A DNA stretch of 64,000 nt from Escherichia coli. GTDB taxonomy: Bacteria; Pseudomonadota; Gammaproteobacteria; Enterobacterales; Enterobacteriaceae. Positions 40,428 through 41,213 of the stretch are shown here, piece by piece. Position 1 is the first letter of the stretch. Each line of letters begins with the position of its first letter. The stretch is from NCBI RefSeq assembly GCF_044324875.1, contig NZ_CP172185.1, one strand, 5' to 3'. The position numbers and the translations under genes were made by a program. The notes beneath the pieces were generated by a model, which was not told the DNA's origin, did no database searches, and worked only from the letters and a program-made list of their open reading frames with translations.

Positions 40428-40436
40428 GTTCGGCGG
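40428..40436. repeat. 9-bp target-site duplication GTTCGGCGG (left copy) of the IS1 in nfsA
   Basis: Identical 9-mer immediately flanks both IS1 ends. Confidence 0.9.
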
Positions 40437-40491
40437 GGTGATGCTGCCAACTTACTGATTTAGTGTATGATGGTGTTTTTGAGGTGCTCCA

Positions 40492-40767
40492 GTGGCTTCT
40501 GTTTCTATCAGCTGTCCCTCCTGTTCAGCTACTGACGGGGTGGTGCGTAACGGCAAAAGCACCGCCGGACATCAGCGCTATCTCTGCTCTCACTGCCGTA
40601 AAACATGGCAACTGCAGTTCACTTACACCGCTTCTCAACCCGGTACGCACCAGAAAATCATTGATATGGCCATGAATGGCGTTGGATGCCGGGCAACTGC
40701 CCGCATTATGGGCGTTGGCCTCAACACGATTTTACGTCACTTAAAAAACTCAGGCCGCAGTCGGTAA
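40492..40767 (+). CDS. insA: IS1 protein InsA
   Basis: 91-aa ORF with zinc-finger CPSC...CSHC; inside IS1. Confidence 0.95.
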
Positions 40768-41189
40768 CCTCGCGCATACAGCCGGGCAGTGACGTCATCG
40801 TCTGCGCGGAAATGGACGAACAGTGGGGCTATGTCGGGGCTAAATCGCGCCAGCGCTGGCTGTTTTACGCGTATGACAGGCTCCGGAAGACGGTTGTTGC
40901 GCACGTATTCGGTGAACGCACTATGGCGACGCTGGGGCGTCTTATGAGCCTGCTGTCACCCTTTGACGTGGTGATATGGATGACGGATGGCTGGCCACTG
41001 TATGAATCCCGCCTGAAGGGAAAGCTGCACGTAATCAGCAAGCGATATACGCAGCGAATTGAGCGGCATAACCTGAATCTGAGGCAGCACCTGGCACGGC
41101 TGGGACGGAAGTCGCTGTCGTTCTCAAAATCGGTGGAGCTGCATGACAAAGTCATCGGGCATTATCTGAACATAAAACACTATCAATAA
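40686..41189 (+). CDS. insB: IS1 InsB' frame (transposase InsAB' is made by -1 frameshift from insA)
   Basis: 167-aa ORF overlapping insA in the -1 frame, as expected for IS1. Confidence 0.9.
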
Positions 41190-41204
41190 GTTGGAGTCAT
41201 TACC

Positions 41205-41213
41205 GTTCGGCGG
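41205..41213. repeat. 9-bp target-site duplication GTTCGGCGG (right copy) of the IS1 in nfsA
   Basis: Identical to 40428..40436. Confidence 0.9.

Follow-up and report, generated by a model that had tools for sequence, protein, structure and literature searches.

Insertion of IS1 into nfsA, the gene for the nitroreductase NfsA of Escherichia coli, is an already known kind of event, found in laboratory selections from 1998 and in clinical isolates, with the 3' end of the gene among the places hit. As summarised in PMC11936445 and PMC12428005, the laboratory selections of Whiteway et al. 1998 gave nfsA::IS mutants as first-step nitrofuran-resistant mutants, and according to these summaries IS1 in nfsA is the first step and plasmid-borne nfsA reverses the resistance. 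The clinical counterpart is nfsA::IS1R in the UK ST1463 (sequence type 1463) urinary isolates IN01 and IN02 (Wan et al. 2021, PMC8767348), in which a 768-bp element with 9-bp repeats lies antiparallel to nfsA near its extreme 3' end, and the paper treats the allele as loss-of-function. Here we describe an allele of this kind in 64,000 nucleotides of E. coli DNA (contig NZ_CP172185.1 of assembly GCF_044324875.1; this whole stretch is called the window below). The likeness to IN01/IN02 extends to the length of the element, its repeats and its orientation, but the site differs (nt 656/657 of nfsA in the window, nt 693/694 in IN01/IN02), as does the lineage, and IN01/IN02 also carry NfsB G192D. 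Unlike the mutants of Whiteway et al., which as summarised were selected in the laboratory in K-12, the window comes from a natural clone. The element is a canonical IS1 and the allele a canonical nfsA::IS1, and they bring nothing new to the biology of IS1 or of nitroreductases; what they do offer is a probable first-step lesion in a natural clone and a caution for resistance screening.

A complete IS1 in the 3' end of nfsA

Sequence reading and a script agree that the 768 bp at 40437-41204 (plus strand) form a complete IS1 of the IS1A type. It is bounded by a perfect 9-bp direct repeat, GTTCGGCGG, at 40428-40436 and 41205-41213, and 40428-41213 thus holds IS1 with both repeat copies, precisely the coordinates and the perfect duplication that a first-pass annotation of the window had read from the letters alone. 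This 9-mer occurs just twice in the window when both strands are searched, and on the coding strand it is nt 648-656 of nfsA. IS1 begins with GGTGATGCTGCCAACTTACTGAT and ends with ATCAATAAGTTGGAGTCATTACC, and its imperfect terminal inverted repeats of about 23 bp, GGTGATGCTGCCAACTTACTGAT and GGTAATGACTCCAACTTATTGAT (left inverted repeat, IRL, 40437-40459; right inverted repeat, IRR, 41182-41204), match at 18 of 23 positions. The orientation of the transposase genes is opposite to that of nfsA: insA (40492..40767, plus strand, 91 aa) in frame 0 and the insB reading frame (40686..41189, plus strand) in frame -1, with the A6C programmed-frameshift motif at 40743-40749. The InsAB' fusion built across this motif is 232 aa long and covers the whole of the IS1 transposase model NF033558 (positions 1-199/199, 245 bits vs a cutoff of 100). 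IS1 copies annotated as IS1A family share 99.9-100% identity with the element over its full length. From its intact reading frames, its intact ends and the presence of a second, identical copy elsewhere in the window, we infer that it is transposition-competent.

The length of the duplication and its surroundings are those of an IS1 target, for which 8-9 bp are duplicated near AT-rich DNA. The target adjoins the AT-rich patch TTTCTTTAATGATT, and GC content is 0.41 within 10 nt on either side of the site vs 0.53 over the whole of nfsA. No known RNA from Rfam matched the insertion site or its vicinity.

The effect on the reading frame can be followed codon by codon. What remains of nfsA on the near side of IS1 is a chimeric open reading frame (ORF) of 225 aa (41183..41860, minus strand), made of NfsA residues 1-219 up to ...DHIRRT (the native part, 41205-41860) and of VMTPTY, a tail encoded by the IRR and followed by a stop inside the right end of IS1. 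Codons 220-240 and the stop lie on the far side of the element at 40361-40427 (TAA at 40361-40363), and with the duplicated 9 bp ahead of them the orphaned 3' end spans 40361..40436 on the minus strand. The first-pass annotation had described both the VMTPTY ending and the stranding of about 21 codons, and both agree with the ORF as found. When IS1 and one repeat are deleted in silico, a 240-aa ORF ending in ...DHIRRTIIKESRPFILDYLHKQGWATR is restored. It matches the NfsA model NF008033 over positions 1-240/240 (437.8 bits), and compared with the K-12 structure 1F5V it has 5 substitutions in 240 residues (T62A, I117T, K141E, A172S and G187D), none of them within the last 21. A single-sequence AlphaFold2 model of the restored protein, tried for the role of residues 220-240, was discarded at a mean predicted local distance difference test (pLDDT) score of 38.8.

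A relative and public data show the site both empty and filled. GN06156, the closest complete genome, has an intact nfsA and the same gene order; the window aligns to it collinearly on either side of IS1, and the 9 duplicated bp are precisely what the left and right alignments share. Because IS1 is intact, the 9-bp duplication perfect, the ORF restorable and the site empty in the relative, the event is a simple IS1 transposition into nfsA, as the first-pass annotation had proposed. The exact 225-aa chimera is found in NCBI under four accessions, including MDA2816195.1, with the name 'nitroreductase NfsA', and in the Logan assemblies of two sequencing runs (8 contigs examined); one source that carries it lists a 5.75-Mb contig. 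At the DNA level, contigs from GCA_027706465.1, SRR8502404 and SRR21141407 show 0 mismatches to the window over 1.1-3.9 kb, the nfsA-IS1 junction included. The intact parental nfsA allele is present in public data too. The lesion marks a small, repeatedly sampled clone and is stably inherited. The exact junction occurs in 0 of 5,426 complete E. coli genomes in RefSeq, the set used for all genome counts below; literature searches found no paper describing this exact allele and, for the sample and assembly accessions that carry it, nothing.

Expected effect on NfsA and nitrofuran susceptibility

An apparently active IS1A-type element entered nfsA between nt 656 and 657 and duplicated nt 648-656. 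Thr219 is now the last residue translated from nfsA, followed by six codons of the right end of IS1 and a stop. This yields a 225-aa product without residues 220-240, in a coding sequence broken by an insertion sequence, one of the lesions (with nonsense and frameshift changes) that define a loss-of-function nfsA. The loss of this segment, which includes Arg225, would leave the enzyme inactive or unstable; less nitrofuran would then be activated, and a first-step phenotype would follow, with a nitrofurantoin minimum inhibitory concentration (MIC) of about 32-64 mg/L. Clinical resistance would come only with nfsB defective as well, since an MIC above 64 mg/L requires a companion lesion there. 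We consider it very probable that the NfsA enzyme is lost, with a first-step rise in MIC. From the published comparisons, the most likely outcome is a modest rise in nitrofuran MIC, and clinical resistance only on added loss of nfsB.

The structural argument centres on Arg225, which in crystal structures of NfsA hydrogen-bonds nitrofurantoin, quinone and flavin mononucleotide ligands and is braced across the dimer interface by Glu99 (PMC8286842). The present allele falls short of the full 240 aa and lacks the C-terminal segment that carries Arg225. All seven homologues in the PDB align to residue 237 or further, and the C-terminus is therefore a conserved part of the fold.

Published lesions at the same end of the gene point in the same direction. 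The insertion of IN01/IN02 (nfsA 693InsIS1R, with NfsB G192D) goes with a measured nitrofurantoin MIC of 256 mg/L, and NfsA E223fs with NfsB E28Stop likewise with 256 mg/L (PMC8767348); both nfsA lesions are more distal than the one in the window. Single nfsA lesions reach less far: apart from the I228fs isolate discussed below, other single nfsA-null isolates have MICs of 16-64 mg/L, usually at or below the breakpoint. The first-pass annotation had presented insertion in nfsA as an established route to nitrofuran resistance. The route is established (PMC8767348, PMC11936445), but 'resistance' overstates what this lesion would do alone, given the 16-64 mg/L of single lesions.

IS1 at nfsA in other E. 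coli

IS1 as such is everywhere in the species, being present in 4,969 of the 5,426 complete genomes at a median of 11 places per genome. In or adjoining nfsA it is found in at least 41 of the 5,426, a lower bound in that pieces were joined on one strand only and IS1 copies in the opposite orientation went uncounted. Fetched loci and alignment spans place the sites in other genomes anywhere from grxA/ybjC to the 3' end of nfsA.

The nearest other case is strain 504838 (NZ_CP025856.1), in which IS1 lies 18 bp further 3' in the same orientation, beside the same AT-rich patch but on its other side. It too encodes a chimeric NfsA (231 aa, 2529-3224 of the locus L002 fetched from NZ_CP025856.1) that is annotated as plain NfsA and not as a pseudogene. 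It differs from the window in being another strain, in its duplication, which is nfsA nt 666-674 (CGGCTTTCT), and in its element, an IS1 variant with 7 differences that is annotated as IS1B family.

A more internal site, nfsA nt 413-420 with the 8-bp duplication CGTCACCG, carries two IS1 variants (NZ_CP126944.1 and NZ_CP059947.1) with 7 and 45 differences from the IS1 of the window, in different lineages. Of the genomes listed, about 17 have the second form of this insertion, among them derivatives of EC0880B, which was published as '1:421int413:723' with nitrofurantoin heteroresistance and is the same nt 413-420 site. To judge from these sequences, nt 413-420 looks like a hot spot for IS1.

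The rimK-ybjN genes downstream

Insertions of IS1 are classically polar in either orientation, by way of Rho-dependent termination. Here the genes on the far side are rimK (39398..40300, minus strand, 300 aa), which lies directly downstream of nfsA and is intact (NF007764, 668.9 bits, positions 1-300/300), and ybjN (38834..39310, minus strand, 158 aa), with which the operon ends, also intact and in a position that agrees with the annotated ybjN of relatives. The first gene, ybjC (41844..42131, minus strand, 95 aa), overlaps the start of nfsA. A spacer of 60 bp separates nfsA from rimK, and nothing in it was called as resembling a terminator.

Transcripts of the SoxS/MarA-activated ybjC promoter would have to run through about 750 nt of IS1, untranslated and antisense, to get to rimK-ybjN, and stress-induced expression of the two genes would fall. 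Polarity of IS1 on rimK-ybjN is plausible on this analysis. Basal expression would come from an internal promoter, from a hybrid promoter at the edge of IS1, or from both. The predicted hybrid promoter (40422..40450, minus strand) points outward toward rimK and combines a -35 hexamer TTGGCA in the IRL, which we take to be the hexamer of the published IS1 fusion promoters, with a 17-nt spacer and the -10 hexamer AATCAT in the nfsA remnant, for 9 of 12 consensus matches in a consensus scan. Fusion promoters of IS1 are documented, as cited in PMC9330008, by Prentki et al. 1986 and by the acrEF activation of Olliver 2005. As there presented, the -35-like hexamer comes from the IS1 end and the -10, at a spacing of 17 nt, from the flanking DNA; the site in the window has the same design but, unlike these cases, is a sequence prediction.

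The first-pass annotation had held that the insertion separates rimK-ybjN from the ybjC-nfsA promoter. That the four genes belong together stands, since RegulonDB gives ybjC-nfsA-rimK-ybjN as one SoxS-activated unit (PMC4207228). The full dependence of rimK-ybjN on that promoter may not hold, as an RpoD-holoenzyme binding site between nfsA and rimK is listed as an internal rimK-ybjN promoter (PMC3946193).

Alternative explanations

The window holds a second IS1 (57860..58627, minus strand) that is inverted, identical to the nfsA copy at 768 of 768 positions, 16,655 bp away and without a target duplication, and identical repeats are a classic source of misassembly and of inversion. It could accordingly be supposed that the nfsA-IS1 junction is an assembly artefact, or that it arose by recombination or inversion between IS1 copies. 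Yet the nfsA copy has the same 9 bp on both flanks and its surroundings are collinear with GN06156, whereas inversion or recombination would have parted the repeat copies; an origin of the nfsA copy by inversion or as part of a composite transposon was rejected on the same grounds. Nor is the junction an assembly artefact, a reservation that the first-pass annotation had itself raised, because the same chimera and the identical DNA junction recur in at least three independent public assemblies, each from its own read set. This explanation is largely refuted and its probability is negligible. A different objection takes the insertion as real but phenotypically neutral, either because the 219-residue core is active enough or because the lesion drifted to fixation in an IS1-rich clone that saw no nitrofuran selection. 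Several observations speak for it and weigh against the loss of NfsA that we favour. The chimeric protein still matches NF008033 with 401.8 bits (cutoff 223, positions 1-221/240), and the sole Pfam domain on NfsA, PF00881, covers residues 10-159, so that the nitroreductase domain proper stops at residue 159 (Nitroreductase_C was not among the Pfam families scanned). In the homologue FRP, R225A has little effect (PMC8286842). An isolate with NfsA I228fs and wild-type NfsB has an MIC of 32 mg/L vs 16 mg/L for the control, which is within the susceptible range, and distal truncations or single lesions of nfsA may in general have small effects. The genes nfsB, ribE and oqxAB lie outside the 64-kb window, and within it there is decay unrelated to nitrofurans (an IS1-linked 1,974-bp deletion in pdeI/dgcI and a frameshift in yliI). 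Against neutrality stand the lesions at residues 223 and 231 in isolates that reach an MIC of 256 mg/L and have no further lesion except in nfsB, the direct contact of Arg225 with nitrofurantoin, and the conservation of the C-terminus across all solved homologues. On balance we regard a neutral insertion as unlikely.

The selected effect could also lie downstream, in that rimK-ybjN would be uncoupled from SoxS/MarA control, through a constitutive hybrid promoter or through polar silencing, with NfsA incidental. The predicted promoter does face rimK from 40450 to 40422, a qualifying -10 would be expected in only about 5% of random flanks, fusion promoters of IS1 have precedent, and rimK-ybjN are within the same operon. 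The match is at the level of consensus only, however, and the region has 4 promoter-like sites vs 2.5 +/- 1.7 expected by chance, a count not above chance that makes the hybrid promoter only a hint. In other genomes IS1 has entered ybjC-nfsA along its whole length, a pattern that suits selection on NfsA and not on this junction, and no phenotype is known to select for such uncoupling; we hold this explanation to be highly improbable. The internal promoter, for its part, would blunt polarity. A bolder variant would make the position of the insertion non-accidental, one event both inactivating NfsA and giving rimK-ybjN a new constitutive promoter that spares the clone the fitness cost of polarity. 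If true, such a dual-effect position would explain the persistence of the clone and the independent, same-orientation IS1 of 504838 at 18 bp distance, but from the sequence at hand we consider it quite improbable.

With loss of NfsA as the preferred explanation, the insertion flags the clone as carrying a probable first-step lesion in nitrofuran susceptibility, which is of modest practical value. It also exposes a pitfall for surveillance. The restored and the chimeric protein both score above the cutoff of the NfsA equivalog model. An IS lesion at the 3' end leaves a chimera that passes the NfsA threshold and is named plain NfsA, and resistance screens can therefore miss such strains; a screen that goes by annotation or by alignment coverage can call them nfsA wild type.

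The second IS1 and the rest of the window

The second IS1, a possible donor or sibling of the nfsA copy, stands apart from the nfsA lesion itself. Its flanks, CAAAATGGT vs GCCAGATAC, show no target duplication, and it stands in place of 1,974 bp of GN06156, from pdeI nt 1185-2349 across the spacer to dgcI nt 1-802. The pattern resembles that of an intramolecular, IS1-adjacent deletion, by which parts of the genes for a c-di-GMP (cyclic di-GMP) phosphodiesterase and a diguanylate cyclase were lost.

The two inverted, identical copies span 40437-58627 with 16,655 bp between them and have the IRL at both outer ends, a composite-transposon-like layout, and such an inverted pair is a substrate for inversion. 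Between them lie the 5' part of nfsA, ybjC, grxA, ybjL, mdfA, dacC, rimO and the dgcI remnant. The contig JAQFWJ010000022.1 (17,070 bp) corresponds approximately to this segment with about 200 nt of IS1 at each end, and its extent suggests that the whole clone shares both IS1 copies.

The 25 kb to the left of the nfsA copy (15500-40436) reach at most 98.9% identity to any of the 5,426 complete genomes, and the 16.7 kb to the right (41205-57859) share 99.56% identity with GN06156, again the best relative. Among complete genomes the lineage of the window is poorly represented, and it may be mosaic around the locus. The aldose sugar dehydrogenase gene yliI (53186-54300, minus strand) has a 1-nt deletion relative to GN06156; its frame shifts after about codon 190, which leaves two ORFs and makes it a pseudogene. 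The small RNA RybB (RF00110, 104 bits) lies at 44990-45068 on the plus strand, between ybjL and rcdA, and is the sole Rfam match in the window.
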